Notes: generated from the letters alone by a model not told the origin. Positions 48,551 through 63,631 are shown, counted from the stretch's first letter. The stretch is 64,000 nt of DNA from an uncultured delta proteobacterium (GCA_963823335.1 CAWGLD010000001.1:640001-704000), one strand, 5' to 3'. Made by a program: numbers and translations.

Positions 48551-49936
48551 ATGGAACTTCATTCGAAACGGAAAAACAAAAAGGCTTCCATGGAAATGTA
48601 TCAAATGGATATCCAGCGGGCTTTGTCCATTTCACTGGCTGCGACGGACAATCTCACAGAAGGGTTAAACTTGTGCCTCGAAGCGAGTCTGCAGATTTCC
48701 GGTATGGATTGTGGCGGTGTCTACCTTTTCGATACCCGCCATGAAAATCTTGATTTGGTCGTTCACAAAGGACTTTCGAAAAATTTCGTCAAGCACATCG
48801 CAACATATGACAAAAATGCAGCAAATGTATTGCTTATTCAGAAAGGCAAGCCCCTCTATACCGTAACAACGAAGCTGGGGGTGCCCCGGTCTCCGGCGCA
48901 AAAACGCGAAGGCTTGCGAGCCCTGGCATCGTTACCATTGTATGACAAATCAAGGATTGTTGGATGTATCAATGTTGCGTCTCACGTTTTTGATGAGATT
49001 TCCCCTTCCTCCCGCATTGCCCTTGAAACTATTGCTGCGCAGGCAGGCAGTGTCATTGCTCGTCTGCAAGCAAAACAGGCGCTCCAGGAAAGCGAAGAGC
49101 ATTTAAGTTCGTTAATGCTTAACGCTGAGCATTACGCTGTTTATCGGTTACAAATCGATGGTTCAGACCCCCACGGGCTAAGAGTTGTTTTTGTAAGCCC
49201 TTCCATAGCAGATATCACGGGGGTTGCCGACCCGGAGAGGTTCGAGACCTGGTTTGAGAATGTCCATGCCGATGACAGGCAAAGAGTTCTATCAGCAAAT
49301 CAGAAAGCGTTCGAAACCAATGAATTTAATGAAGCCATGAAGATCAACCATCCCCGAAAAAAAGAGCATCGCTGGATCCATTCTATCTCTAAAGGTATTC
49401 GCTCCCAAGATGGCAAGATACAATTTGTCAATGGCATCATCATCGATATTACAGAACGAAAACTTGCCGAGCAGGCATTGCTTGCAAAAGAGAAAGAATT
49501 GGAATCAAAAACAAGCAAGCTCGAGGAGATCAACACCGCCCTGAACGTCCTGTTAGAAAAAAGAGAGCAGGATAAAATCCTTTTGCAGGAGCAGGTGCTG
49601 TCGAATGTGAAAAAACTGGTGATCCCATCCGTTGAAAAGCTGAAAAAAGGCACCCTCAACGAAATACAATCAGCCTTACTGGATGTTATCGAGTCAAGTC
49701 TGCATGAAATCGTTTCACCCTTTTCCCATAAACTGTCCTCTGAATTTTTCGGATTAACGCCCGCTGAAATAGAAGTGGCTGCTCTTGTCAGACAGGGCAA
49801 AGGAACAAAAGAAGTTGCAACAATCCGAAATCTTTCACACAAAACAGTGGCACGTCACAGGGAGAATATAAGGAACAAGCTCGGTATAAAAAATAAAAAA
49901 ATTAATCTGCAATCCTACCTGAACGCCCTCGCATAA
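48551..49936 (+). CDS. GAF-PAS-LuxR transcriptional regulator
   Basis: GAF region, PAS (VHADDR...DITERK) and LuxR HTH (LTPAEIEVA...HRENIRNKLG). Confidence 0.88.
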   Translation: MELHSKRKNKKASMEMYQMDIQRALSISLAATDNLTEGLNLCLEASLQISGMDCGGVYLFDTRHENLDLVVHKGLSKNFVKHIATYDKNAANVLLIQKGKPLYTVTTKLGVPRSPAQKREGLRALASLPLYDKSRIVGCINVASHVFDEISPSSRIALETIAAQAGSVIARLQAKQALQESEEHLSSLMLNAEHYAVYRLQIDGSDPHGLRVVFVSPSIADITGVADPERFETWFENVHADDRQRVLSANQKAFETNEFNEAMKINHPRKKEHRWIHSISKGIRSQDGKIQFVNGIIIDITERKLAEQALLAKEKELESKTSKLEEINTALNVLLEKREQDKILLQEQVLSNVKKLVIPSVEKLKKGTLNEIQSALLDVIESSLHEIVSPFSHKLSSEFFGLTPAEIEVAALVRQGKGTKEVATIRNLSHKTVARHRENIRNKLGIKNKKINLQSYLNALA

Positions 49937-49993
49937 TACCCATTTCGAGTAGGCACTATATAGGCAATAAAATGGCCTTGATTGTCTTGTGCT

Positions 49994-50878
49994 TCATGAC
50001 CCGTTGACCCTGTGTGCGCCATCATGGGTCAGAAGGGGTGTATAGAGGGCAGGTCTACGATCCCTGAAGAGCCCCCAGCCACTTCTTTCTGCCGCCATGG
50101 CATCCAGGTCAACCTCCGCCGAGACAACCGTTTCCGAAGTACGGTCAGCCCGCTCCATTAGCCGGCCTTTATTGTCGGTAATAAAGGAAGACCCGTAAAA
50201 AGTAATCGCAGAACCATCGATGTTTTCTCTTCCCACACGATTTGACACCACCACAGGCACCATATTTGCAGCGGCATGTCCTTGTATACAGGTTTGCCAG
50301 TGATCCCTGGAGTCATATTCATGATCTTGCGGCTCGGAACCGATAGCGGTTGGGTAAAGGAGAATTTCAGCGCCCATGAGAACCATGCTCCTTGCAGCTT
50401 CAGGAAACCACTGATCCCAGCAGATGCCGATCCCGATGGTGCCGTAACGGGTTTTCCAGACACGAAAGCCGGTGTCACCGGGGCTGAAATAATATTTTTC
50501 CTGATACCCAGGCCCGTCCGGTATGTGTGATTTGCGATAGATGCCTAGAATGGCACCGTCTGCGTCGACAACCGCAATCGTGTTGTAATAGGTCTGATTC
50601 TTTTTTTCGAAAAAGCTGATGGGCAGCACAACCCTCAACTGTCTGGCGAGTGCTGAAAAATGTCGCACCCCGGGGTTGTCCTGAATATCGGCGGCGAGAC
50701 CGAAGAAATCCTGTTTCTGGGATTGACAAAAATAGAGCGTTTCAAAAAGTTCCTGAAGCAAAATGATCTGCGCGCCGCTGGAGGCGGCCTCCCGCACCAG
50801 TGTTTCAGCCTTGGCGATGTTTTCATCCCGGTCCGTGCTGCACATCATCTGGGTAGCGGCAATGGTTACTTTTCGCAT
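49994..50878 (-). CDS. aguB: N-carbamoylputrescine amidase
   Basis: LQELF, YRKSHIPDGPGYQEKYYFSPGDTGF, ICWDQWFPE and YPTAIGSEP. Confidence 0.95.
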   Translation of the reverse strand: MRKVTIAATQMMCSTDRDENIAKAETLVREAASSGAQIILLQELFETLYFCQSQKQDFFGLAADIQDNPGVRHFSALARQLRVVLPISFFEKKNQTYYNTIAVVDADGAILGIYRKSHIPDGPGYQEKYYFSPGDTGFRVWKTRYGTIGIGICWDQWFPEAARSMVLMGAEILLYPTAIGSEPQDHEYDSRDHWQTCIQGHAAANMVPVVVSNRVGRENIDGSAITFYGSSFITDNKGRLMERADRTSETVVSAEVDLDAMAAERSGWGLFRDRRPALYTPLLTHDGAHRVNGS

Positions 50879-50910
50879 GTGCGTCTTCTCCTTCGAGCCG
50901 CAACAATTTA

Positions 50911-52008
50911 TCAGACGGCCGGGACCTGCTGGGTGATACAATGGATGTTCCCGCCGCCGAGCAAAATCTCGCGGGTCTGTACACCCACGATCACCCGCTC
51001 GGGGAAAAGAGCTTGCAGGGATTGCCTGGCCGCCACATCGTGGGGATCGTCAAAAAACGGCATGACGATGCCTCCGTTGGCCATGTAAAAATTGATGTAG
51101 GACCCGGCCAGCCGGTCCCCGGGATTCCTGGGTCGCGTGTTGTCACTGGAATCGAGACCCTCACTTTCTGTTGCGGTCATAAAAAGAGGGCCTGGCTGAT
51201 GAATTTTATGAATTACGAGGTTTCTTCCCCGGGCATCTTTTGACCGGGATAAAAAATCGAAAGCTTCTTCAGATATTTTTCGCTGGGGATCGGTGACATC
51301 ATCCGTCCATGTGAGAGCAACGACCCCCGGTCTTATGAAACAGCACAGGTTGTCCACATGCCCGTCTGTCTCATCGTGGTAGACCCCTTGGGGGAGCCAG
51401 ATGATTTTTTCCACGTTTAAAAAGGATTCCAGATAATCTTCAATCTGCCTCTTTGAAAGTTGTGGGTTACGGTTGGCATTCAAAAGACAGCCTTCGGTGG
51501 TAATGAGCGTTCCTTCTCCATCCACATGAATGGCGCCCCCTTCCATGATGAATGGCGCCCGGTATCGATCCCTGTTTTCAATTTCGAGTACCTTTTTGGC
51601 AACCCGGTCGTCCTGGTCCCACGGAAAATAGAGTCCTTTTTCGAGCCCGCCCCAGGCGTTGAAGCGCCAGTCAATACCACGGACCACGCAAGTCCTGTCA
51701 TTTACGACAAAGGTGGGGCCCACATCCCGCATCCAGGCATCGTCGGAAGATATCTCCAGGACCCGCACTTGCCCGGGCAACCCAAGGCGGGCATTTTCGA
51801 GCTGGTGTCCTGACACCCCTACAGAAACCTGCTCGAAACGGGATATGGCCGCAGCGACTGCAGCAAACGCTTTTTGTGCGGGCTTGGCAGCAAGCCGCCA
51901 GGTGTCTTGTCGCTCCGGCCAGAGCATCCAGCAGCCCTGGTGGGGCTCGAACTCACCCGGCATGCGAAAACCGTCATTCCGTGGATGGTTGTTCAAAGTC
52001 GTTGACAT
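50911..52008 (-). CDS. aguA: Agmatine deiminase
   Basis: [33 protein letters not shown] and [11 protein letters not shown]. Confidence 0.96.
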
Positions 52009-52020
52009 GTGGATCCATGA

Positions 52021-52054
52021 TAAACACCCCCGTGCATACGCACGGGGGTGTTTA
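52021..52054. terminator. Perfect 15-bp hairpin between potD and aguA (terminator or mRNA stabiliser)
   Basis: TAAACACCCCCGTGC-ATAC-GCACGGGGGTGTTTA. Confidence 0.7.
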
Positions 52055-52056
52055 TT

Positions 52057-53103
52057 TTAATGCGATTTTGCCCGTGTCCAGGCTTCATCCATGTAACGGT
52101 TCTTATTCCCAAGGTCCTTGGTAAAATGAAGTGTCTTCATGATGTCATCCGTGGGATAAATTCCAGGATTTGTCACGTCTTCCGGTGTAATATAAGGCAT
52201 GGACGCCGCATTGGGCGTGGCATACTGATTATAGTTGGAAAGTTCGGCACCCACCTGCGGCTCGAGAATCCAGTTAATCCACTTGTGGGCTGCATCGGAA
52301 TTAGGCGCCTTGGCAGGGATGCACATGGAGTCAAACCAGATCTCGCTTCCTTCCTTGGGGATGATAAACGCCAGGGTATCCGGCTCCTCGGTAACCGACT
52401 GGATGGCATCTCCATTATAGACGATGGCGGCCGCAGCGGTTCCTGCAACCACATCGTTTTTCCCGCCGACGCCGGGCTTAAACCCCATACAGTCCTTTAA
52501 CTTTTTCGTCGCCACCAGCAGATCGGCAGCTGCCTTGAGCTCTTTGGGTTCGGTGCTGTTGAAATCGTATCCCAGATAAAGGAGTGAGATACCCATCATT
52601 TCGCGGACCGAATCAATCAGCCAGAAAGCGCCGGGGTTCTTTTTTTGATCAAACAGAATCGACCAGGACTGGGCGTCTTCGGGCTTGATCTGGTCTTTTC
52701 GATACATGAGACCCACCGTGCCCCACTGCCATGCCACGGACCATTTGTTCCCTGGATCATAAGAGGTTTCCCGGAAAATAGGCTTCAGGTTCTTCATGTT
52801 CGGAATCTTGGCATGATCGAGCGGTTGAATCAGCTTCTGGTTGATCAACACAGGCATGATATAGTCCGACGGTACGATGATATCGTACTGACTGACACCG
52901 CCGGCCTGGAGCTTGGCCACCATCTCTTCATTGTTTTCGTAAATGTCGAGCCTGACTTTGATCCCTGTCGCTTCTTCGAAAGCGGCCGGCATCGCCTCCT
53001 CATCCATATACTCGGACCAGATGAAAATCTTCAGTTCTTCAGCCACTACCACGGCTGGAACCAGCAACGACAACACGATAAAAACCATAAATAATTTACG
53101 CAT
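52057..53103 (-). CDS. potD: Polyamine ABC transporter substrate-binding protein
   Basis: Signal peptide; WSEY, YDIIVPSDY, DPGNK..V.W.WGT and IPKEG..IWFD. Confidence 0.92.
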   Translation of the reverse strand: MRKLFMVFIVLSLLVPAVVVAEELKIFIWSEYMDEEAMPAAFEEATGIKVRLDIYENNEEMVAKLQAGGVSQYDIIVPSDYIMPVLINQKLIQPLDHAKIPNMKNLKPIFRETSYDPGNKWSVAWQWGTVGLMYRKDQIKPEDAQSWSILFDQKKNPGAFWLIDSVREMMGISLLYLGYDFNSTEPKELKAAADLLVATKKLKDCMGFKPGVGGKNDVVAGTAAAAIVYNGDAIQSVTEEPDTLAFIIPKEGSEIWFDSMCIPAKAPNSDAAHKWINWILEPQVGAELSNYNQYATPNAASMPYITPEDVTNPGIYPTDDIMKTLHFTKDLGNKNRYMDEAWTRAKSH

Positions 53104-53205
53104 CTCTCTCTCCTTTCTCTTGGTTAGTGCCTGTTAACACCTTAACAACTTGTTACCTTTACACAACTCACTCGACCCCTGGAATCCTCGAACCCTTCAG
53201 TTACA

Positions 53206-53997
53206 TCATCCTTTACGTGAAATACGCTCGGTGCCGATAACAAGAACCACCGTAATGATCATGATAAGGGTCGACAAAGCATGAATCTGGGGAGTCACAC
53301 CCCGGCGAACGGCTGCAAAAATGTAAAGAGGCAGCGTCTGGGATTCAGGCCCGGCGGTAAAGAAGCTGATTACAAAATCATCCAGAGAAAGCGTGAAGGC
53401 CAGCATACCCCCGGCCACAATACCGGGCATCAGTAATGGCAGCATGATGCGTCTTAGCAGATACCAGTTGCTGGCAAACAGATCACGTGCCGCTTCTTCA
53501 ATTTCATGGCCGATGGCGATAAGTCGGCTGCGTACCACAAGCGCGACAAATGCAACTTGAAAGGTGATGTGCCCGATGATCATGTTCAGAAGCCCGGGTT
53601 CAAACATGGTTGAGAGTACCCGCAAAAGCCCGAAGGCGACCACGAGTGCTGCCGCCAAAATAATATCCGGAATAACCACCGGGATGTGCAAGACAATATC
53701 GAGGGCGTTGCTGGTTCTGCGGGTCCAGGGAAAGCGGTCCATACCGATGGCCAATACGGTTCCCAAAACCGTGGCCACAAGGGTCGACACCACTGCCAGT
53801 ACCAGCGTGTTCCAGGCTGCTTCCAGAATCCATTCATTGCTGAAAAGTTTGACATACCAGTCGAGAGTAAACCCTTTCCAGACCAGACCACGCCGGGCCG
53901 AATTCACCGAGAAAACGGCAACGCCCAACAAAGGGATGTAGAGAAAACCCATGGTGAACAAGGCCAGAGAGGTAATGATGGGATGAGTTCGTTTCAT
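53206..53997 (-). CDS. potC: Polyamine ABC transporter permease
   Basis: FLYIPL, GFTLDWY, EEAARDL, AFTLSLDDF and TLPLYIF. Confidence 0.93.
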   Translation of the reverse strand: MKRTHPIITSLALFTMGFLYIPLLGVAVFSVNSARRGLVWKGFTLDWYVKLFSNEWILEAAWNTLVLAVVSTLVATVLGTVLAIGMDRFPWTRRTSNALDIVLHIPVVIPDIILAAALVVAFGLLRVLSTMFEPGLLNMIIGHITFQVAFVALVVRSRLIAIGHEIEEAARDLFASNWYLLRRIMLPLLMPGIVAGGMLAFTLSLDDFVISFFTAGPESQTLPLYIFAAVRRGVTPQIHALSTLIMIITVVLVIGTERISRKG

Positions 53998-54903
53998 ACG
54001 TGCTCGATCTCCTTGCTCCTGCGCCGATAGATCTGGAGGCTGATCATGGTCAGCACCATGAGCCCCATGCTGATGGCTGCACCAAAAGGCCAGTCCCTGC
54101 TGGATCCGAACTGTTGCTGGATCAGATTTCCAACCAGCATGTACTTGGCGCCTCCCAAAAGATCGGGAACGATAAACATACCCATGGCCGGAACAAAGGT
54201 CAGAATGACCCCCACGGACAATCCGGGCATCGTCTGGGGCAGAATGGCCTGGGTAAATACACGTATCCGTGATGCATACAGATCCTGGGCAGCTTCCACC
54301 AGGGACCAGTCGAGTTTTTCCACACTAGCGTACAGCGGCAAGGTGACAAAAGGTAAAAACATGGAAACCATACCGATATAGACCGCGAAGGCATTCGGAT
54401 AGAGAGGTGCCCCCTCGCTGATAAATCCCAGCGCGGCGGCCAGCTTGGCAAATGGAAGTTCCGGTGCCAAAATCAAAAACCAGGCATAGGTTCTGAATGA
54501 CCATGTTGGTCCAGAAGGGGATGATCACCAGTGTCAGCCACATGTAACGGCTTCTTTCTTCCCGTGCGGCAATAAAAAAGCACAGAGGATATGAAAGCAG
54601 GATGGATACCAGGGTCGTTACCAGAGCCACCACCACCGATCGCCACAGGATGAGCAGGTAATCGGACGTCCATCCAAACAGGCTGAAGCCCATGAGCCGT
54701 TTGTAGTTTTCAATGGTGAATTCCCATACCAGCTGGCCGTAGGCCCCACGCGTGGCAAAACTGACCACCACCAGAACCAGTCCGGGCAGTACCAGAAAAA
54801 CCAAGAGCCAGAGCATTCCGCTTGAAAGGAAAAAAAACCCGCGTTTCAGGAGTTGCGCCTGGGTGGTCAGTTCTCCGTACCATATGAGGAGCCTATGTTT
54901 CAT
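53994..54903 (-). pseudogene. potB: Polyamine ABC permease split by a +1 frameshift near 54496 (may be a sequencing error)
   Basis: Removing one T from ATG GTC ATTC AGA restores the conserved IPFWTNMVIRTYAW; both halves are otherwise intact. Confidence 0.8.
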
Positions 54904-55958
54904 CGGTATTATCCAGTATTACCAGTTCGTTGGGCGAAAGTTCAAGCCAAACTTGATCACCGGGCTTAAAATTTTTATAAGAACTGGTACGGACACGAAG
55001 AGGGCCGGGATTGAGCCAGAGATCAAAATTGGTGCCCCGGTAAATGACTTCACTGACCGTCGCCCTTACACCGTTTGTTTCAGGCTGGGAATCCCGAATC
55101 CAGACCCACTCGGGCCGGATCGCCAATAGACCGCTTTCCCATGGAGGCTCTTTTTCTACTTTCAATACACCGAAGGGGGTCTGGATACCACCGGTGACTT
55201 TCTCTGCCTTTGATGAGGTTTGCAGCACCCAGAAACTCCGCCACAAATCTGTTTTTGGGAAAGTCGTACACTTCCTGCGGCGTTCCGTATTGAACCACCC
55301 GTCCTTCATGCATCACCGCCAGACGATCGCTGCAGACCAGTGCTTCGGACTGGTCATGGGTAACCAGAAGAAAGGTTTTCCCGAGACGGCGCTGGATGCG
55401 CCGAAGATCCTCTTGAACCTGTGCCCGCAATTTGGCATCGAGGGCGGACATGGGCTCGTCCAGCAACAGAATCTCCGGTTCGTTCACCAGCGCCCGTGCA
55501 AGTGCCACGCGCTGTTTTTGACCACCTGACAACTGATCAGGTCGACGGTTTTTCATCTCCTGAAGCCCCAGCATCTCCATCCGTTTGTCCACCCGCTTTT
55601 CTACCTCGCTGTTGGGGAATTTTCGCGAGCGCAGTCCGAAGGCAATATTTTCATAGACACTCAGATGGGGAAAAAGCGCATAACTCTGAAAGACCGTATT
55701 CACCTGTCTTTTGGTGGCGGGCAGGGAAGTAACATCCTGCCCCCCCAGATAGACGTGACCTGTATCTGGTAATTCCAGACCGGCAATAATGCGAAGCAAC
55801 GTGGTTTTACCACAACCGGAAGGTCCCAGCAGGGTCAGAAATTCACCACTGTATACCTCCAGATCCACGTCCTTGAGGGCTTCCACATTTCCGAAGCGCT
55901 TGTTGATACCCTTGACAATCAATCCGTCTTTGTTTGCAGAAATCATCTTTCCTGGCAT
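54893..55958 (-). pseudogene. potA: Polyamine ABC ATPase with a +1 frameshift near 55210 (may be a sequencing error)
   Basis: GPSGCGKT, LSGGQKQR and LLLDEP; removing one A from ATCAAAGGCA joins the TOBE-domain frame (LAIRPE, IYRG). Confidence 0.8.
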
Positions 55959-56003
55959 TTCTCTATTAAGGTTAAGATACCTCTTTTACCTGCCTGGGGT
56001 GTA

Positions 56004-56549
56004 TCAGCCCATATAACCGGGTGTGCGTGGAACACGAACAGCTGCATTCAGAACATTTTGAGCGAGTCGGTGTCGTTTCTCGCCGGCCGTACCGGCTGAA
56101 ATGCGCTGTTTCATCTGGCTATTCCGAAGTTTGCGGGAATTTTTATCCGGTTCTTTGAACAGCAAAGCCCCGTAATTGCATTCATCCACACAGACCGGCG
56201 TGCCGCCACAAAGATCACACTTGAATGCCTTGCCGGACCCGTATTGCTCGATCATACCATAAGGGCAGGCATCGACACAATCACCGCACCCGTCACATTT
56301 GCTCACATCCACCACAACGACGCCCCTGTCGTTTTTGAAGATGGCCTCCACCGGACAGGCCTCCATACAGTCTGGTTTCGGACACTGAAAACAGATGTTC
56401 TGTACCGAATACCCCTGGAGCGGAAAATTGTTTATTTTCATTCGTGCCTTCGAGGGCATGAACAAACCTTCTTTTGCAGCAGCACAGGCATATGTGCAAC
56501 GATTGCACCCTGTGCAGCGATTGGGTATGGCCAACAGATGCTTTTCCAT
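56004..56549 (-). CDS. 4Fe-4S dicluster electron-transfer protein (AOR partner type)
   Basis: CTGCNRC...C, CFQC...CMEACP, CDGCGDCVDACPYG and KCDLC...CVDEC. Confidence 0.9.
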   Translation of the reverse strand: MEKHLLAIPNRCTGCNRCTYACAAAKEGLFMPSKARMKINNFPLQGYSVQNICFQCPKPDCMEACPVEAIFKNDRGVVVVDVSKCDGCGDCVDACPYGMIEQYGSGKAFKCDLCGGTPVCVDECNYGALLFKEPDKNSRKLRNSQMKQRISAGTAGEKRHRLAQNVLNAAVRVPRTPGYMG

Positions 56550-56608
56550 CGTACTCCTCCATCGTTATATATCAAACCTGCGGTTAGCGATGCTAACACG
56601 TTTATTTT

Positions 56609-59600
56609 TTAAAGACCTTCAAGACCAAGTTTTTCCAACTTGTCTTCACCGGGCCTGCCGTCAGCATCCCATCCGCGAAGATGATAATAGAGTAGTTTCA
56701 TCTCCTCCAGGTCTTCGAAACGTAAAACACGCCCTTCATGGGGACCATTTTCGAGGGTCTTTTTGATCAATTTATCCGACAGCACATCATCCTTTGCCGT
56801 AAAGCCTGCCCGAAGATTGTAAAGACGCATGAGGTTCCAGATCCGTTCGCCCGCTTTGTCCAAATCTTCGGCAGAAAATTGCCGACCCATACCTGCGGTC
56901 AACAGACCCGCCATGATCTGTGTATCGACAGATCCCCAGAAGTCACAAAAGCACATGCACCATTTGATGGCATTGCCGTTCTGACCCTTGATCACTTCTT
57001 TGACCATTGAATCGAGTTTGAAGGGGTCTTCCGCAAACAAGGTAAACGCTCTTAGATGGCAGGCACCACGCTCACTGGTGGCATACGCCAAGCCCATCCC
57101 ATAACTTCCCCTGGGGTCGTAAGCGGGCATTTCCAGTCCTTTGGCATGGGCCGCTTTTCCGGACTCCCCATATAACGCATCCAGTTTTGCGGCACCCTGG
57201 GCCAGTGTACGGCCTCTCTCCGTGGACAGACGCGCGATTTCCTCCACCACCGCCAGGTACCCCTCTGGCTGACCGAATGCCAGTTCAAAGTCATTCAGCC
57301 CCGCTTCGGTCAGATCCATGGCCAGGGCGATGGTACTGCCTGTAGACATGGTGTCCAGACCAAGATCATCGCAAATGCGGTTAAAACGCATGACCTGCTC
57401 CAGGTCATTGATCTCGCAGTTGGAACCACCCAGGCATAATGTCTCGTATTCAGGTCCTTCCATTTCGACCCCGTTAACGGAGGTAAAATTGCCGCAGCCC
57501 AGCGGACACGATGCACAGGCCCTGTCTCCGATCTGGATGGACTTGATGGCTTCCGAATCGAGTGAATTGCGTCGGGGATTCATACCCTGAGTGTAATTGC
57601 GGGTGGGATGTATACCCATCTCATTGGTAACTTCCACCAGCATAGGCGTGCCTTTATTCTTGGCCCACAGGTTTCCTTCGGTCAACAGGTTGGACTCTGT
57701 GGCATCGGCCACCTTCCCCAGGAAAACACCCATATCAGCAACCTGAACCCCTCCTGTGCCGATACAGGCAAGCGCCTTGAGCTTCTTGGCTCCGAAAAGA
57801 GACCCCGCGCCTCCACGTCCCATCTGCCGATAGGCTTCTGAGCCGATACAGGCAAAGGGGATGATATTTTCGCCAGCCGGGCCGATGGAGAGACTCTTGA
57901 CCTCATGCCCCATGGTCTCCTGCAGCCATTCCTCTGTCTCGAATATTCCTTTACCCCAGACAGCATCCGCTTTTTCCAGGCTTACCCGGTCATCTTCGAT
58001 ACGCAGATAAACCGGGCTATCCGCCTGACCCGTAATGACGATACCGTCATACCCGGCGAATTTGAGTTCGGGACCGAAGGCACCACCTATGTTTGATTCG
58101 AAAATCGTGCCTGTGGCCGGCGACTTGGAAACAAGACAGAGCCGGGATGCCGTGGGTGCCAGGGTGCCGCACAATGGACCGGTCATGATCACGATGGGGG
58201 TGTCCGGTGACAGGGCATCGGCGGTGGGATCCGAAAGATCGTAGAAATACCGTGTCGCAAGACCCCACCCGCCGATGTAGTCATTTAGCCAGTTTTTGTT
58301 AATAGGCTTGGCTGTAACGGTTCGGGATGAAAGATCCACATGCAGCAGTTGGCCGGCGTAGAGATTCATGGTCTGGGGTCTTTTGGGCAGTTCGATGGAT
58401 TTGAAAACATCTTCGAGCCGGTTGAGAATTTCATCTAAAATTTTCTGGGGCACATTCAAGGCCGGTTCAAATCGGATGTTTTTTGCATTGGTCAGGGTTC
58501 CGGCCGTGAGGACGCCTCGCGAAAATAGACCCGAAGCGACTTTGTACCCGATGCCGTCTGTGGAAAATTCCATGCCTATCAAAAGCCCCAGACCCCTGAC
58601 ATTGGCCAGTACCCCGGGATATCGATCCTGAAGTTGTCTCAACTGGCTGCGCACATAGTGGCCTTTGGTTTTAGCCTGCCCGGCCAGATCTTCCTCCAAT
58701 AAAACCGTGATCGCCGCCAGGGCGGATGCACACGCCAGGGGATTTCCGCCGGTGGTGGTAGTGTGCATAAAGGGGTTGGGCTCCATGCATTCCCATATTT
58801 TCGCGGTGGACATAAAGGCGGACATGGGCACCACACCACCTCCCAGGGCTTTGCCCAGGCAGAGGATGTCCGGTGCGACATTCCAGTGATCCACACCGAA
58901 GATCTCTCCGGTACGGCCCATGCCGGTCTGGACCTCATCCGCGATAAGGAGCACGCCGTAATGACTGCAGATTTCACGTAAACGCGGCCAGTAATCATCG
59001 GGTGGCACGATGGCGCCGGCTTCACCCTGTATGGGCTCCGCAACGACAGCGGCAATACCGTCACCCACCGCTTTGGCAGCCGCCAGGGCTTGTTCCACAG
59101 CCTGGGCATCGCCAAAAGGAACATGCCGGACCCCCTCGAGCAGGGGCAGCAGGGGCTCCCGATACGTCTTTTTACCCATCAATGAAAGCGCTCCCAGGGT
59201 CTTGCCGTGAAAGGCCTTGAGCATGGAGATGAATCCGCTTTTTCCGGTGTAGAGCTTGGCCAGCTTCATGGCGCCTTCCACCGCTTCCGTTCCGGAATTG
59301 GCGAAAAAGCCGTATTGAATCTTTCCCGGTGTCAGCAACGCCAGGACCCTGGCCAGTTGGGCGCGCAAGGGATCGAGCATCTCCTGGCTGTACTGGGGCG
59401 AACGGTCCAGCTGGGCTTTGACGGCCTGCACAATCTTCGGGTGACGAATTCCGTAGGAGTATAAACCAAAGCCGCCCAGAAGGTCCAGATACTCGCGGTC
59501 GAGGGCATCCACAAGGACAGAGCCCTGACCCGTCCACTCTGTAATGGCAAAATTCGTCGCCTCGGTGACGGATTTTCTGTAATTGAGAAAGCCTTTGTTG

Positions 59601-59773
59601 ATGTGGTCCCTGAAATTGCGTTCGGTTTTCAGAGCGACTTCCTGGCGTACATCGAGGGCTGTCTGTTCCAGGGGGGTCAATATGATATCAACCATTTGCA
59701 CGGCCTCTTTCAGAGCCGTCTGTATGTCCCTTCCCCGATAATCGCTCTTATAATTTTTTTCAAAATCTCGCAT
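56609..59773 (-). CDS. Fusion of putrescine aminotransferase (PatA-like, 59773-58370) and aldehyde:ferredoxin oxidoreductase (58369-56609), 1054 aa
   Basis: N-terminal HINKGFLNYRKSVT, FHGKTLG, EPIQGEAG, DEVQTGMGRTG, LGKALGGG and HTTTTGGNP; C-terminal SKSPATG, GPELKFAGYD, GRGG.G, CASCPLGC, EYET, DDLGLD, KGLEMPAYDPR and RGACH. Confidence 0.92.
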   Translation of the reverse strand: MRDFEKNYKSDYRGRDIQTALKEAVQMVDIILTPLEQTALDVRQEVALKTERNFRDHINKGFLNYRKSVTEATNFAITEWTGQGSVLVDALDREYLDLLGGFGLYSYGIRHPKIVQAVKAQLDRSPQYSQEMLDPLRAQLARVLALLTPGKIQYGFFANSGTEAVEGAMKLAKLYTGKSGFISMLKAFHGKTLGALSLMGKKTYREPLLPLLEGVRHVPFGDAQAVEQALAAAKAVGDGIAAVVAEPIQGEAGAIVPPDDYWPRLREICSHYGVLLIADEVQTGMGRTGEIFGVDHWNVAPDILCLGKALGGGVVPMSAFMSTAKIWECMEPNPFMHTTTTGGNPLACASALAAITVLLEEDLAGQAKTKGHYVRSQLRQLQDRYPGVLANVRGLGLLIGMEFSTDGIGYKVASGLFSRGVLTAGTLTNAKNIRFEPALNVPQKILDEILNRLEDVFKSIELPKRPQTMNLYAGQLLHVDLSSRTVTAKPINKNWLNDYIGGWGLATRYFYDLSDPTADALSPDTPIVIMTGPLCGTLAPTASRLCLVSKSPATGTIFESNIGGAFGPELKFAGYDGIVITGQADSPVYLRIEDDRVSLEKADAVWGKGIFETEEWLQETMGHEVKSLSIGPAGENIIPFACIGSEAYRQMGRGGAGSLFGAKKLKALACIGTGGVQVADMGVFLGKVADATESNLLTEGNLWAKNKGTPMLVEVTNEMGIHPTRNYTQGMNPRRNSLDSEAIKSIQIGDRACASCPLGCGNFTSVNGVEMEGPEYETLCLGGSNCEINDLEQVMRFNRICDDLGLDTMSTGSTIALAMDLTEAGLNDFELAFGQPEGYLAVVEEIARLSTERGRTLAQGAAKLDALYGESGKAAHAKGLEMPAYDPRGSYGMGLAYATSERGACHLRAFTLFAEDPFKLDSMVKEVIKGQNGNAIKWCMCFCDFWGSVDTQIMAGLLTAGMGRQFSAEDLDKAGERIWNLMRLYNLRAGFTAKDDVLSDKLIKKTLENGPHEGRVLRFEDLEEMKLLYYHLRGWDADGRPGEDKLEKLGLEGL

Positions 59774-59855
59774 TTTATACTCCTATCTTTCTTTTTGCTG
59801 CCATGCCGCAATTGACCTTGATGGCATGTGCGCACAAAAGCGGTCTGACCCAAAC

Positions 59856-60001
59856 TAGAAGCTATCTCAAAAAAGTTTTTTGACCCAATTTCTGTGTTGG
59901 TTTCTTGCTTCAACTCCTCGGAATACTGCAGTATGCCTGCGGGTTGACGTTCGGGCCCGCCTTGAACTTGAGCCAAAACTCTTTTTTTGAGATGGCTTCT
60001 A
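59856..60001. mobile_element. MITE-like element, copy 2
   Basis: TA-GAAGCTATCTCAAAAAA...TTTTTTGAGATGGCTTC-TA; near-identical to 9306-9477. Confidence 0.8.
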
Positions 60002-60601
60002 AACTGTCGGCTGCTTTAACAATTTGACGGCGATCTCCTTTGAAGCTTTGGCAAAGGTCTCAAATGGCTGACCATCGGAAAGAAACTGTGTGTGGAATTC
60101 CAACCCTTCCATAAGGGTTACAATAAAATCCGCCGCCATTTTTACATCTTTTGCCTTTGTGATACCCGCTTCCTGGTATATTTCCAGCTCATGCACCAGA
60201 TAATCTCGAAACCGTTTGAACATTTCCCTGAAGCGTTTCCGAATCACCGGTTTCCTGAAGCTGAGATAGTAAAACCCGAAGTGAACACCCGTATCCACAG
60301 TCCTTGACCACTCAAGGGAAAAAATAGTATCCATCAGCGCTTGAAACCGCTCATTTAAATCCGGGATGTGACTGAAATCAAGAAATTCCGGTGCCTCGTA
60401 TTTCTCGATGATGAGGTCTACGAGCTCGATGGTCATATTTTCTTTGGTTTTAAAGTAGTGAATGATCAGACTGGGATGGATTTTCGCGCGCTTTGCGATC
60501 TTGCCGATGGATGCGCCCTCCAGTCCTTCCTTCATGATTACCTGGTAGTAATTTTCTAGAATTTCTGATTTGCGTATTTCAGCTTTTTGATTTTTCCGCA
60601 T
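59999..60601 (-). CDS. TetR family transcriptional regulator
   Basis: EGLEGASIGKIAKRAKIHPSLIIHYFKTKE. Confidence 0.9.
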   Translation of the reverse strand: MRKNQKAEIRKSEILENYYQVIMKEGLEGASIGKIAKRAKIHPSLIIHYFKTKENMTIELVDLIIEKYEAPEFLDFSHIPDLNERFQALMDTIFSLEWSRTVDTGVHFGFYYLSFRKPVIRKRFREMFKRFRDYLVHELEIYQEAGITKAKDVKMAADFIVTLMEGLEFHTQFLSDGQPFETFAKASKEIAVKLLKQPTV

Positions 60602-60624
60602 GGGTCGCTTGCGCTCCGGAGAAA

Positions 60625-60670
60625 ATTATATGAATATTCATTTAATAATCTTGGCGAAAAGGGCTGTCAA
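60625..60670 (-). promoter_or_regulatory. Promoter (-35 TTGACA) with near-perfect 22-bp palindrome, putative TetR operator
   Basis: ATTATATGAATATTCATTTAAT at 60625-60646; TTGACA at 60670-60665. Confidence 0.6.
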
Positions 60671-60727
60671 GAAAAAATTTGAAACAAAAAAAACGATCGC
60701 ACCCCCGCTAGGCTCTGCCATATGGCA

Positions 60728-60761
60728 GAAGATTCCTCGCAGCTTGCTGCGAGGAATCTTC
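60728..60761. repeat. Palindrome GAAGATTCCTCGCAGC-TT-GCTGCGAGGAATCTTC
   Basis: Perfect 16-bp arms; related to 4860-4893; lies after the DUF4143 gene stop. Confidence 0.75.
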
Positions 60762-60784
60762 AATAGCGATCTTCTACTGACACC

Positions 60785-62080
60785 CTATATTGCTCGGCTC
60801 AGCGGGAAATTTGGTGGCTGAAACAGTCTGTGCGACGGCACGGCCCAGATATCCGGCTCGGCAAGGGGTTTGATGGACTTCCCGGTGTGGATCACCAGGC
60901 CACCCAGCCACTTTTTACCGAGCTGTTGTGCGACTGTGCGCATGGCACGCGTATCTTTGGTGTGTGCGGTGGCGCGGGATTTAATTTCCATTGCGATGAT
61001 GCCGGCCGGTGTTTCAAGCAGCAGGTCCAACTCCATGCCGGATCTTGTGCGGTAAAAATACAGTTCGGCTTCTTTGCCGCGGGTTCGCATCCATTTGATA
61101 ATTTCCGCAACCACCATGGTTTCATAAAGCTGGCCGCTGGTTTCTCCCCTATAACCGGTCAGTTGACGCCAGATCCCGACATCAGTCCAGAAAAGCTTGG
61201 GCGTTTTGATCGTAGAACTTGTGATGTTTTTATAATAGGGCTGCAGCAGAAAGGTCTGATAGGAGAGCCGCAAATATTCCATGTACCTTCTGGCTGAATC
61301 GACGCTGATACCGGTATCTCTTGCCAGTTCTGAATAGTTGAGCAGCATGCCGGAGCGCAGAGCAGAGAGCTTTTGGTATTTTCGAAACGGCATCAAATCA
61401 TCCAGACGGGCCAAATCAGCGAGGTCGCGTTCCAAATAGGTATATCCATAGTTTTTTAGCCATTCCCATCGTTCTGCGTCCGACAATGGGAGCAAGGCAG
61501 GCATACCGCCCCAGGCAAGTATATGTTGTTCCGCCTGACGACAGGCCAAATCGTCGGCTTCAAGCAAAACCGACTGAATGCCAGTAAGTATCCGGGCTAC
61601 TGGATGCCCTGAAAAAAACGCATCGATCAGCGGCACGGGGCGTTCTGCATTGCCGTCCTTTGCCTTCTGGAGCAGTTCACACGGCATTAGTGGCCAAAGT
61701 TCGTAAAAGAAAGCCCTGCCTGCCAATGATTCGCGAATCTTTTTGAGCAATAGAATCTGACTCGATCCGGTAAGCACCGTAAAGGAGATCGCCCCTTCAT
61801 CAAAAGCGTATTTCACTTTTTCAAAAATGGAAGGCTCTTTTTGAGCTTCGTCAATAACTGCATTGCCCACGGTTTGCGCCCAGGCCAGGGTTGAAAGCTG
61901 GCGAAGTGTGTCACGGTTTTCCGGGGCATCCAAGTTGATATATCGCAAGGCCGAATAAGCGGTCCTGCAAAGGGTGGTTTTCCCGGTTTGGCGCGCGCCG
62001 GTGAGAACCACGATTCGATGGGTTGCAGCGTTGGGTAAGCGTTGGTTGACTTGGCGGTATTTGTGTGAATCAAACGACAT
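60785..62080 (-). CDS. AAA_14 ATPase with DUF4143 / PD-(D/E)xK-like C-terminus
   Basis: TGARQTGKT, IDEAQ, LTGSS, ESLAGR, GGMP, KTPKLFWTDVG and ELDLLL...AMEIKS. Confidence 0.88.
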   Translation of the reverse strand: MSFDSHKYRQVNQRLPNAATHRIVVLTGARQTGKTTLCRTAYSALRYINLDAPENRDTLRQLSTLAWAQTVGNAVIDEAQKEPSIFEKVKYAFDEGAISFTVLTGSSQILLLKKIRESLAGRAFFYELWPLMPCELLQKAKDGNAERPVPLIDAFFSGHPVARILTGIQSVLLEADDLACRQAEQHILAWGGMPALLPLSDAERWEWLKNYGYTYLERDLADLARLDDLMPFRKYQKLSALRSGMLLNYSELARDTGISVDSARRYMEYLRLSYQTFLLQPYYKNITSSTIKTPKLFWTDVGIWRQLTGYRGETSGQLYETMVVAEIIKWMRTRGKEAELYFYRTRSGMELDLLLETPAGIIAMEIKSRATAHTKDTRAMRTVAQQLGKKWLGGLVIHTGKSIKPLAEPDIWAVPSHRLFQPPNFPLSRAI

Positions 62081-62239: not shown

Positions 62240-63463
62240 TTAGTCACGTCCGTCTTTATATGTTTCCTCCACGGTTACACCTAATTTGGCCAGTTCCTTG
62301 AAATAATAGGTCCGGGCTTTCTTTTCGAGCTGCTCTGGAACGTACAATCCTTTTTTCGTAAAAACGTCCTCCACCATCATTTTTACAAAAACCGCCGCAC
62401 ATTGCCCTGTCATAAAAGCCTCATGGGTCAATCCGGAGCTCTTGAAAGCATCAACCAGACCCGGTGCGTTGGCATAGGTATCGACCCGGACAGGTTTACC
62501 ATTCTTGAAGCCATCGACCCGGACAAGAAAGGCGGCTTCTTCGGTGATCACCCCTTCATCGATAATGCTCTGTATTTCATCTGAATATTTAGGGGCAGGC
62601 GGGCAGAGTTCCAGAACCAGGTCCATGGGTATCACGGAAGCACCATTGACGGTCACCGGCTTGGTGGAGAGCAGTCCGAGCTTATACAGATCTTCGGACA
62701 GCTCGACCCCGGACCCGCCGTACTTGAATTCGACATTTTTAACACCTTTGAGGGCTTTATCGGCCATCAGTCCCATGGTAACAGGCTCATCATGTTCATG
62801 GTCGACCAACCGTACCGGGTGGTCGATCCCCTTGAATTTCATCCAGATAGGTCGGCTAAAGGGTTTGTCTATGATGTGCTCCCCGTCCTCATAGCGAAAT
62901 GTTTTGTAGGCCATGTCTCCGAAAGCCACTTCCGGCGACCACCAGAAAGGCGTAAACCGCTTGGTCTTCAAGCCCTCGTATACATATATGCCGATGGTGT
63001 CGCATGAATCCATTTTTTCGACTGCCTCCCTGGCCATGACGTTGGCCAGGCCGGGGGCGGAGCCTCCACCGAGAAGCGCTGACAGACCCTTTGCCTTGAA
63101 TTTTCGATGCCATTTTGTAAACATCATCTGATAGCTTTCAACAAAACCGACGTCTTCCATGGGGCCGGCCATGTCAAAATAGGACGCATTCACGGCCAGA
63201 GCCGCTTCCATGATGTTCAGGTTGTACTCCAGGGGCAACCCGTTCACTATCAGGTCACAGCCCTGAGCAGCTTGAATCACGTTATCGACATCGCTGGCGT
63301 CCAACTGGAGCGCCTTGGCCTTTTTTAAAGAGCCGCTCAATTTTTGGGCGGCTTTCTGATCATAATCCGCACAGATAATTTCCGATACCTGGGGATGTTC
63401 ATCCATCCTTTTGGCGATGGTGCTTCCTTGAGCGCCAACACCGACCACAATTATTTTTTTCAC
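62240..63463 (-). CDS. Saccharopine dehydrogenase family protein (carboxy(nor)spermidine dehydrogenase-like)
   Basis: VVGVGAQG, LDASD, YFDMA, GSAPGLAN, WSPE and HDE; GTG start with AAAGGA RBS. Confidence 0.8.
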   Translation of the reverse strand: MKKIIVVGVGAQGSTIAKRMDEHPQVSEIICADYDQKAAQKLSGSLKKAKALQLDASDVDNVIQAAQGCDLIVNGLPLEYNLNIMEAALAVNASYFDMAGPMEDVGFVESYQMMFTKWHRKFKAKGLSALLGGGSAPGLANVMAREAVEKMDSCDTIGIYVYEGLKTKRFTPFWWSPEVAFGDMAYKTFRYEDGEHIIDKPFSRPIWMKFKGIDHPVRLVDHEHDEPVTMGLMADKALKGVKNVEFKYGGSGVELSEDLYKLGLLSTKPVTVNGASVIPMDLVLELCPPAPKYSDEIQSIIDEGVITEEAAFLVRVDGFKNGKPVRVDTYANAPGLVDAFKSSGLTHEAFMTGQCAAVFVKMMVEDVFTKKGLYVPEQLEKKARTYYFKELAKLGVTVEETYKDGRD

Positions 63464-63631
63464 AATTCTTCCTTTCAATTTGTAATGATTGTGTGTTAGT
63501 TTTGCCAAAATAGTAGGCCGCCCATGTTCGTTTGTCAATAAAAATATATCATAATTCGGCGGATATGGTTAAATTACTATAAAATAAACGCGGATTACGA
63601 TGGAAAATAACTATTGATCCGGGAGGACCCC

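Follow-up and report, generated by a model that had tools for sequence, protein, structure and literature searches.

The DNA analysed here, referred to as the window, is a stretch of 64,000 nucleotides from an uncultured delta proteobacterium (GCA_963823335.1, CAWGLD010000001.1:640001-704000). Its minus strand carries at 56609..59773 a single open reading frame (ORF) of 1054 amino acids, with no internal stop and with an AGGAG 8 nt 5' of the ATG, in which a predicted putrescine aminotransferase is fused to an aldehyde:ferredoxin oxidoreductase (AOR) of the tungsten type. Three Pfam domains follow one another in the protein: Aminotran_3 (PF00202; residues 76-456, E 6.7e-95), AFOR_N (PF02730; residues 475-672, E 7.6e-73) and AFOR_C (PF01314; residues 703-1051, E 3e-108). 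The AOR part begins at M469 (58367-58369), after a short linker (Table 1). The first-pass annotation of this DNA had described just such an ORF of 1054 residues, with a PatA-like domain, the linker KSIELPKRPQT, a complete AOR domain and a 4Fe-4S gene next to it, and all of this was borne out by the ORF and the Pfam matches. The span given for it, 56004-59773, covers the fusion gene together with the iron-sulphur (Fe-S) gene; the fusion gene alone occupies 56609-59773.

Table 1. Features of the locus. Positions are counted from the first letter of the window; in the two residue rows, YgjG numbering precedes that of the fusion protein.
Feature	Position	Strand	Evidence or detail
Predicted PatA/YgjG-type putrescine (diamine) aminotransferase domain, residues 1-457	58403..59773	-	Aminotran_3, NF008570, 4uox match
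Linker KSIELPKRPQT, residues 458-468	58370..58402	-	11 residues
AOR/WOR (tungstopterin aldehyde:ferredoxin oxidoreductase) domain, residues 469-1054 and stop codon	56609..58369	-	AFOR_N + AFOR_C
WorS/AorA-type poly-ferredoxin, 4x[4Fe-4S], 181 aa	56004..56549	-	16 Cys, Fer4_11 and related models
TetR-family regulator, upstream, same direction	59999..60601	-	Pfam TetR_N, TetR_C_37, TetR_C_6
potA-like ABC ATPase, two frames in assembly	54893..55958	-	ABC_tran + TOBE_2 in two ORFs; PotA 370.6 vs cut-off 482
potB-like permease, two frames in assembly	53994..55053	-	BPD_transp_1; tblastn with L020 PotB
potC-like permease	53206..53997	-	BPD_transp_1; best NCBIfam PotC, 222 vs cut-off 326
potD/potF-like polyamine-binding protein	52057..53103	-	SBP_bac_8; best NCBIfam PotD and PotF, both below cut-off
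Agmatine deiminase AguA	50911..52008	-	TIGR03380, 576.5 vs cut-off 381.8
N-carbamoylputrescine amidase AguB	49994..50941	-	TIGR03381, 461.4 vs cut-off 410.25
PLP-site residues, YgjG to fusion			K300→K308, G150→G161, T151→T162, F180→F188, D271→D279, V273→V281, Q274→Q282, T332→T340
Diamine-site residues, YgjG to fusion			K183→K191, Q119→Q130, E243→E251, F91→F102, L419→L427, F327→F335, Y402→Y410, R426→R434

The fusion proved to be real and conserved. A search of 5.8 billion proteins gave 678 matches among 8000 scored candidates, and the best 120 listed clusters, which come from ENA, JGI, NCBI and Logan assemblies (71-100% identity, 978-1093 aa), all contained PF00202, PF02730 and PF01314, the combination that the first-pass annotation had suggested looking for. 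An uninterrupted frame over the junction was found in 27 of 401 genomes sampled from the same order, spanning 14 families; the initial worry that the fusion might be an assembly artefact absent from relatives did not come true. Among 41 related genomes, four carried an uninterrupted fusion gene and a fifth had the gene in three frames. By tblastn of 73 loci on public genome contigs, the halves were contiguous in one frame in 14 and were joined with frame breaks in two more, giving 16 fused loci. The junction itself (58367-58402) is bridged by a contig of an independent DNA run (X2 record 14, 58076-58576; one other letter, no gaps) and, again without indels, by contigs from RNA libraries (X10 record 5, 58188-58485; X9 record 29, 58091-58409), so that 58360-58400, where a check of reads had been advised, is crossed cleanly. 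Contigs of other runs gave no listed indel within 56609-59773, and the only one listed over the 5.7 kb compared with them is an extra window base at 55206 in potA. The linker is variable in sequence across 45 fused homologues, and its length is 11 residues in 41 of them and 12 in the other four; the former AOR start methionine (M469) is retained in 18 and gone in 27. The fused AOR domains grouped as one clade (SH-aLRT 100) when 70 AOR sequences of the retrieved loci were placed in a tree; L035, a member of this clade, represents a fused gene with a frame break. These results point to one old fusion that would have been maintained by selection in the Desulfobacterales. At 50% clustering a single representative (P0031) spanned both domains among the best 150 of 6764 matches at E up to 1e-30, a range in which no more distant fused form was seen.

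Record titles of the carriers include Desulfosarcina, Desulfobacula, Desulfobacteraceae and the Olavius Delta-1 symbiont, and the protein has been deposited many times under the name 'putrescine aminotransferase' only. The gene turned up in the data of 15 studies on marine, estuarine and aquatic sediment, and a gutless worm harbours it in its Delta-1 symbiont (L033). Parts of it lie on contigs from eight RNA libraries, and those of two studies span most of the gene, which gives a weak hint of its expression. Several other candidates for fusion were rejected: L034 and L058, with aminotransferase (PatA/AT) and AOR matches in one frame, and L071, with matches in two frames, consist of separate adjacent ORFs; a stop separates AOR from AguB in L021 and AOR from a small protein in L020; and G382 ('open frame 1046') is not a fusion.

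For the N-terminal half, the best PDB match was E. coli YgjG (4uox; 463-465 bits, 48% identity, TMt 0.93), the next aminotransferases in the list being PigE (4ppm, 244 bits) and acetylornithine aminotransferase (229 bits). The NCBIfam model NF008570 matched above its cut-off (637.7 versus 612). In the available parts of the YgjG paper (PMC4244111), K300 is the Schiff-base lysine and D271, G150, T151, F180, V273 and T332 are further residues for pyridoxal phosphate (PLP), E243, Q274 and R426 are strictly conserved, and Q119 and E243 bind the substrate amines. The same source describes a narrow hydrophobic entrance made by F91, L419 and F327, names Y402 as well, reports that K183 replaces the carboxylate-binding arginine of ornithine, acetylornithine and 4-aminobutyrate (GABA) aminotransferases, and states that cadaverine is accepted too. 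On alignment to 4uox_A, whose numbering is that of the paper, all 16 of these residues are identical in the fusion protein (Table 1), and the PLP domain is complete, as had been claimed. The N-terminal half is thereby supported as a diamine aminotransferase of the PatA/YgjG type, predicted to be a putrescine:2-oxoglutarate transaminase.

The C-terminal half aligned end to end with solved tungsten AORs (9mqx_D, 435 bits; 1aor from P. furiosus, 420; 9g7j, 361; 8c0z, 354), at 34-40% identity and TMt 0.90-0.93 (40% and 0.93 for 9mqx_D, 38% for 1aor). Residues C753, C756, C760 and C943 align with the ligands of the [4Fe-4S] cluster, which in P. furiosus AOR we take to be C288, C291, C295 and C494, and every one of the 45 fused homologues has them, as do 51-52 of 52 other AORs. 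Both the EGPEYE and the GACH motif are retained, with E775 in 44 of the 45 fused homologues and E777 and H906 in every one; in the P. furiosus enzyme the active-site residues near the metal are presumably E313 and H448. With AFOR_N and AFOR_C at full length and the four cysteines kept, a complete AOR with its Fe-S ligands, as earlier proposed, is the predicted and supported identity of this half. We take the pterin-binding motifs of AORs to be two copies of D-x-x-G-L-(C/D). The first is retained as DDLGLDT at 802-808, and in the second the aspartate, presumably part of such a motif, is replaced by W938, the fused homologues reading W-C/S-M-C-F-C without exception (45/45). Around the fourth Fe-S cysteine, N934, K937, W938, C941 and W946-G947 make up a clade signature (residues 934-947, window positions ~56933-56974). 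Fused AORs and their unfused sisters together account for 37 of the 70 tree rows (support 100), and a stem of 0.72 sets them apart from every other AOR sampled. The presence of about 14 more AOR-like places in the genome suggests a supply of the cofactor and nothing more.

The Fe-S partner gene, worS, lies 59 bases downstream of the fusion and stands directly downstream of it in all 16 fused loci. The 16 cysteines of its product fall into four ferredoxin-type groups resembling CxxCxxCxxxC, and the best PDB matches are small subunits of AOR complexes (9mqx_E, 8c0z_C and 6x6u_B), which identifies the 4Fe-4S partner noticed earlier as a poly-ferredoxin of the WorS/AorA type. The N-terminus of the protein (MEKHLLAIPNR) contains no twin-arginine/Tat motif. 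Neither a WorN/AorC FAD/NAD subunit nor a bifurcating WorABC module was found in the string that runs from tetR through the fusion and the Fe-S gene to potABCD and aguAB, and no gene of an FAD-containing AorC/WorN was found in the 16 fused loci, as far as the queries used could show. In the available part of a recent classification of tungsten oxidoreductases (WORs; PMC13328260), Class II comprises WorL and WorS with ferredoxin as carrier. Because WorS is adjacent and no FAD/NAD subunit or bifurcating module is nearby, the fusion and worS would belong to this class by gene content. The FAD subunit gene that goes with the NAD-linked AorABC type (Class III) was not found at the locus.

On the minus strand, tetR, the fusion, worS, potA, potB, potC, the potD-like gene, aguA and aguB follow one another with short gaps, a predicted context of polyamine uptake and agmatine-to-putrescine conversion. 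The fused loci repeat this order: of the 16, ten have a tetR (56-94% identical) directly upstream of PatA, as do three Desulfobulbales loci, and 11 have potA on the 3' side, three of the remainder stopping at a contig end. Two of the transporter genes are broken in the window. The frame of potA is interrupted by one base at 55206, and since that base is absent from all four other runs, the potA break at least is an assembly error or a private mutation. In potB the frame switches at about 54490-54608, as located by tblastn with the intact PotB of a 93% identical relative (L020), in which both potA (350 aa) and potB (352 aa) are whole. Between the tetR stop and the fusion start (59856-59998) lies an element of ~146 bp resembling a miniature inverted-repeat transposable element, with terminal inverted repeats, a long hairpin (-51 kcal/mol, z -4.4) and about 40 copies in the genome at 70-97% identity. 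It is covered at a depth of ~300x in all four other runs, with loose ends at 59856, 59888 and 59998. Rfam gave no match at E up to 0.1 over 55900-60700, this element included, and a scan of 49800-60800 for promoters and terminators returned sites no more numerous than in shuffled sequence.

On the same strand, 62240-63538 encodes a protein of the saccharopine-dehydrogenase family (432 aa), weakly matched by the carboxynorspermidine synthase model (66 bits versus a cut-off of 800). Its orthologues (58-88%) accompany pot genes in Desulfobacterales, Desulfuromonadales and Desulfobulbales loci, and it may be a dehydrogenase that cleaves or forms polyamine C-N bonds and feeds the same pathway. The two closest relatives carry an extra AOR (30-32%) adjoining aguA or aguB (L020:20095-22053; L021:18704-21628), which in L020 is followed, after a stop and in the same frame, by a small protein of the ThiS/MoaD type that has GG at its end ('WorX'-like). 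This extra AOR is absent from the window's cluster.

PatA and AOR genes also lie together where they are not fused. In five Desulfuromonadales/Geobacteraceae loci the order differs, an AOR (61%) being followed by worS (51-55%), PatA (67-71%) and then matches to potA, potC and potD, and these unfused AORs fall in the sister clade of the fused ones in the tree. Three Desulfobulbales loci, one of them from the cultured Desulfopila sp. IMCC35006, have tetR, PatA (71-73%) and an AOR as separate ORFs, again followed by potA, potC and potD matches; here the AOR is non-orthologous (28-29%) and belongs to a distant clade. Another genome (G079) has a string of a gabT-like gene, an AOR, a small ORF, PatA and an AOR. 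Taken as predictions of gene function, these arrangements indicate that the linkage of PatA with AOR is independent of the fusion. Two further proteins join a PatA-like aminotransferase domain, 44-47% identical to that of the fusion, to an aldehyde dehydrogenase domain: P0185 (989 aa) contains cNMP_binding, Aldedh and Aminotran_3, and P0217 (672 aa) contains Aldedh and Aminotran_3. Because PatA-like domains are thus also fused to NAD-type aldehyde dehydrogenases, the AOR domain appears, by analogy, to stand in the place of an aminoaldehyde dehydrogenase. A fusion of another kind was seen in P0153 (992 aa) and P0190 (832 aa), in which a complete AOR is joined to an OMPdecase/HUMPS-family domain resembling hexulose-phosphate synthase, possibly linking the release of formaldehyde to its oxidation. 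Sister-clade AORs with WorS occur in other surroundings as well. In L042 the order is ETF beta, ETF alpha, AOR, WorS and a GMC oxidoreductase, a dimethylglycine-dehydrogenase-like gene and MttB lie nearby in L044, and MttB and a B12-binding protein in L038. These gene sets look like choline and glycine-betaine catabolism, where the AOR would oxidise betaine aldehyde.

On the product side, GabT proteins above the TIGR00700 cut-off (10 proteins scanned) were found in or near six PatA-AOR clusters: between worS and potA in L021, after potD in L031, and in L030, L071, L041 and L082. A six-frame search of the genome itself with TIGR00700 returned one place above the cut-off (548 versus 507), followed 23 bases later by an AOR of 593 aa (33% to the fused AOR) and then by pylB (TIGR03910, 455 versus 348), the gabT-AOR pair lying at G000:C1:1458318-1461331 (L003:152-4408). 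This pair is a candidate for a second aminotransferase-AOR couple, from GABA to succinate, and the adjoining pylB would be a sign that the organism makes pyrrolysine. In the tree the gabT-linked AOR groups with an AOR adjoining an aminotransferase in a Bacillota metagenome-assembled genome (L078). No PatD/YdcW equivalog above the cut-off was found in the genome, the best score being 418.7 versus 615. For putrescine, the available part of PMC12041015 gives gamma-aminobutyraldehyde dehydrogenases of the NAD(P) type only.

The architecture, its conservation, the retained cofactor- and substrate-site residues and the gene linkages are matters of observation. From them we infer a bifunctional enzyme that would convert putrescine via 4-aminobutanal to GABA and pass the electrons to WorS and ferredoxin, a reading to which we assign a probability of about 75%. 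PotABCD would import the putrescine, or AguA and AguB would form it from agmatine. The N-terminal PLP domain would move one of its amino groups onto a 2-oxo acid, leaving 4-aminobutanal in equilibrium with 1-pyrroline, and the C-terminal tungstopterin domain, replacing the NAD-dependent PatD/YdcW of E. coli, would oxidise the aldehyde to GABA. The two electrons would travel from the domain's own [4Fe-4S] cluster through the four clusters of WorS to a low-potential acceptor, most likely ferredoxin. GABA would then go on to succinate semialdehyde and succinate by way of GabT and of a further AOR, an unfused one encoded at another place in the genome. Cadaverine is probably also a substrate, the metal would be tungsten rather than molybdenum, and a kinetic benefit of the fusion might arise from proximity and a fixed 1:1 stoichiometry. 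An anaerobic route from putrescine to GABA had been put forward in the first-pass annotation, and it fits the neighbourhoods of the pot transporter, aguAB and gabT; the accompanying idea that the unstable aldehyde is channelled found no support. The AlphaFold model of the fusion has a mean predicted local distance difference test (pLDDT) of 91.2, falling to ~60 in the linker, and a predicted template modelling (pTM) score of 0.65, and no tunnel can be claimed because the model leaves the domains unplaced relative to each other. A complex prediction of the PatA domain (76-461) against the AOR domain (468-1054) gave a score of 0.00 and a mark of 0.32, which speaks neither for nor against an interface.

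Several observations weigh against this proposal. Although each domain is modelled confidently, their relative placement is not, and no domain interface is defined. The older putrescine aminotransferase model TIGR03372 scored below its cut-off (487.2 versus 658.65). W938, which adjoins the fourth cluster cysteine, has an aspartate opposite it in 27 of 52 other AORs and a tryptophan in only four. Two species of a genus that also holds fused forms (G264 and G289) have the PatA half only, at the threshold used, and in the first of them potACD comes straight after PatA, the locus (L096) having neither an AOR nor an Fe-S gene; Pontiella loci likewise have PatA without AOR. The AOR thus appears not to be an obligatory partner and to be dispensable in some lineages. 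Three generic NAD(P) aldehyde dehydrogenases encoded in the genome, which score 367-419 bits against the PatD model, could oxidise 4-aminobutanal. This aldehyde is mostly present as cyclic 1-pyrroline, which an AOR may not accept, and characterised AORs are broad in substrate. Finally, contigs from RNA libraries do not prove transcription.

The alternative that survives best keeps the chemistry and changes the amine, cadaverine, 1,3-diaminopropane or a spermidine-derived aminoaldehyde or diamine being turned into 5-aminovalerate or beta-alanine. YgjG takes cadaverine, according to the part of PMC4244111 available, the TIGR03372 score is low, the binding protein at the locus falls below both the PotD and the PotF equivalog cut-offs and so does not fix the identity of the imported polyamine, and the saccharopine-dehydrogenase-family gene accompanies pot genes in many loci. 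However, Q119, E243, F91 and L419, the residues that contact putrescine in YgjG, all have identical counterparts in the fusion, aguA and aguB, both above cut-off, would make putrescine in the same gene string, and GabT, which carries out a GABA-specific next step, is clustered in six loci. We consider this alternative unlikely. A flow in the opposite, biosynthetic direction, in which reduced ferredoxin would drive GABA or another omega-amino acid to the aminoaldehyde for amination to a diamine, seems very improbable. In its favour, the acid/aldehyde couple is very low in potential, AORs are reversible, and acid reduction by an AOR in vivo has been reported in the part of PMC10816221 available. 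Against it, the locus contains an uptake transporter, a TetR-type repressor and aguAB, already supplying putrescine, the linkage to GabT fits the consumption of GABA, and NAD-type aldehyde dehydrogenases, to which PatA-like domains are also fused, are effectively one-way oxidisers.

It is equally hard to believe that the two halves are metabolically uncoupled and that the AOR is a general aldehyde detoxifier merely attached to PatA. Characterised AORs of clade 87 are described as broad-range and often detoxifying (PMC13328260, in the part available) and no domain interface was predicted, but a linker of fixed length has been kept over at least 14 families, unfused AORs of this clade are linked to PatA too, a non-orthologous AOR occupies the same place in Desulfobulbales, and PatA-like domains are joined to NAD-type aldehyde dehydrogenases as well. 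An artefact of assembly or gene calling, in which an indel or the loss of a stop codon in a long-read-like assembly would have merged two neighbouring genes, is already refuted. Frame breaks do occur in potA and potB of the same window, with the base at 55206 missing from all four other runs, and they abound in a locus of 92% identity (L051), but the same single ORF recurs in the best 120 listed clusters of four sources (ENA, JGI, NCBI, Logan) and in 27 of the 401 genomes sampled from the order, the junction is bridged without a gap by contigs of other runs, and 27 of 45 homologues have no methionine at the old AOR start.

The fusion is thus real and conserved, and appears to be an uncharacterised bifunctional enzyme. 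The PDB has no chain that spans both halves (TMq at most 0.54), and the literature searched gave no description of a PatA-AOR fusion or of an AOR-dependent putrescine route, in agreement with the initial statement that no characterised enzyme of this architecture was known. The main text of the WOR classification (PMC13328260) contains no mention of aminotransferase, transaminase, fusion, putrescine or polyamine, and its supplementary datasets may list such neighbourhoods. Taken singly, the halves are ordinary members of known families; the novelty lies in their covalent union, which would bring with it a variant of the putrescine transaminase pathway that is linked to ferredoxin. The potential of the acid/aldehyde couple is near -580 mV, and the use of an AOR instead of PatD would let an energy-limited sulfate reducer hold the electrons of the aldehyde step at the level of ferredoxin, not NADH. 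Putrescine and cadaverine are released wherever biomass decays, which gives the route ecological relevance. A natural aminotransferase-AOR chain would also be of biocatalytic interest, for converting amines to acids or, in reverse with low-potential electrons, acids to amines.

More tentatively, and as a possibility that we rate below even odds, the fused AORs and the unfused sisters with WorS could form a clade for omega-ammonio aldehydes, a tungsten counterpart of aminoaldehyde and betaine-aldehyde dehydrogenases. The PatA branch would lead from putrescine to GABA, and the sister branches, found with a GMC choline-dehydrogenase-like oxidoreductase, ETF, MttB-type methyltransferases and corrinoid proteins, would act on betaine aldehyde. 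If this is true, then with the gabT-AOR pair added anaerobic Desulfobacterota would have an undescribed way of oxidising polyamines and choline, wholly linked to ferredoxin, in which every aldehyde step conserves low-potential electrons. A defined physiological role is given for only five of 92 tungsten oxidoreductase clades in the available part of the 2026 classification (PMC13328260). Here the fusion gene itself names the supplier of the AOR substrate, which makes the whole clade directly testable.

Among known systems, the E. coli pathway of PatA/YgjG, PatD/YdcW, GabT/PuuE and GabD is the closest in chemistry. The first enzyme is the same (48% identity, 16/16 residues), GabT comes next in both, and the intermediate and product, 4-aminobutanal and GABA, are probably shared. 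It differs in that PatD is NAD(P)-dependent, whereas here a tungstopterin/Fe-S AOR is fused to PatA and the electrons would leave at the ferredoxin level; an AOR may serve the succinate-semialdehyde step as well, as the succession of gabT and AOR suggests. AORs of the clade-87 type, namely 1aor of P. furiosus, the electron-bifurcating WOR of the Acetomicrobium type (9mqx), AorABC of A. aromaticum (8c0z) and the C. autoethanogenum enzyme (9g7j), share with the fusion the AFOR_N and AFOR_C fold, the cysteine, glutamate and histidine residues and a four-cluster subunit like WorS/AorA. The fusion is distinguished from them by its N-terminal 468 residues of PLP enzyme plus linker, by the lack of an adjoining WorN/AorC or WorABC, and by its position in a clade of its own with a long stem (0.72) and the signature K937-W938. 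While these AORs are described as broad-range or detoxifying, the fusion has a built-in substrate supplier. In P0185 and P0217, which to our knowledge are of an uncharacterised type, a PatA-like Aminotran_3 domain is joined to an aldehyde-oxidising enzyme as in the fusion, but the partner is an N-terminal Aldedh and not an AOR, and P0185 contains a cNMP-binding domain in addition. PutA, which combines proline dehydrogenase and P5C dehydrogenase, has a demonstrated channel, and no interface is predicted in the fusion. According to the part of PMC12041015 available, PutA likewise oxidises an amine-derived compound in two steps, via an aldehyde able to close into a cyclic imine, with two enzymes in one chain. 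The folds of the two systems are nevertheless unrelated, PutA working with FAD and NAD and the fusion with PLP and a tungsten-pterin/Fe-S centre.

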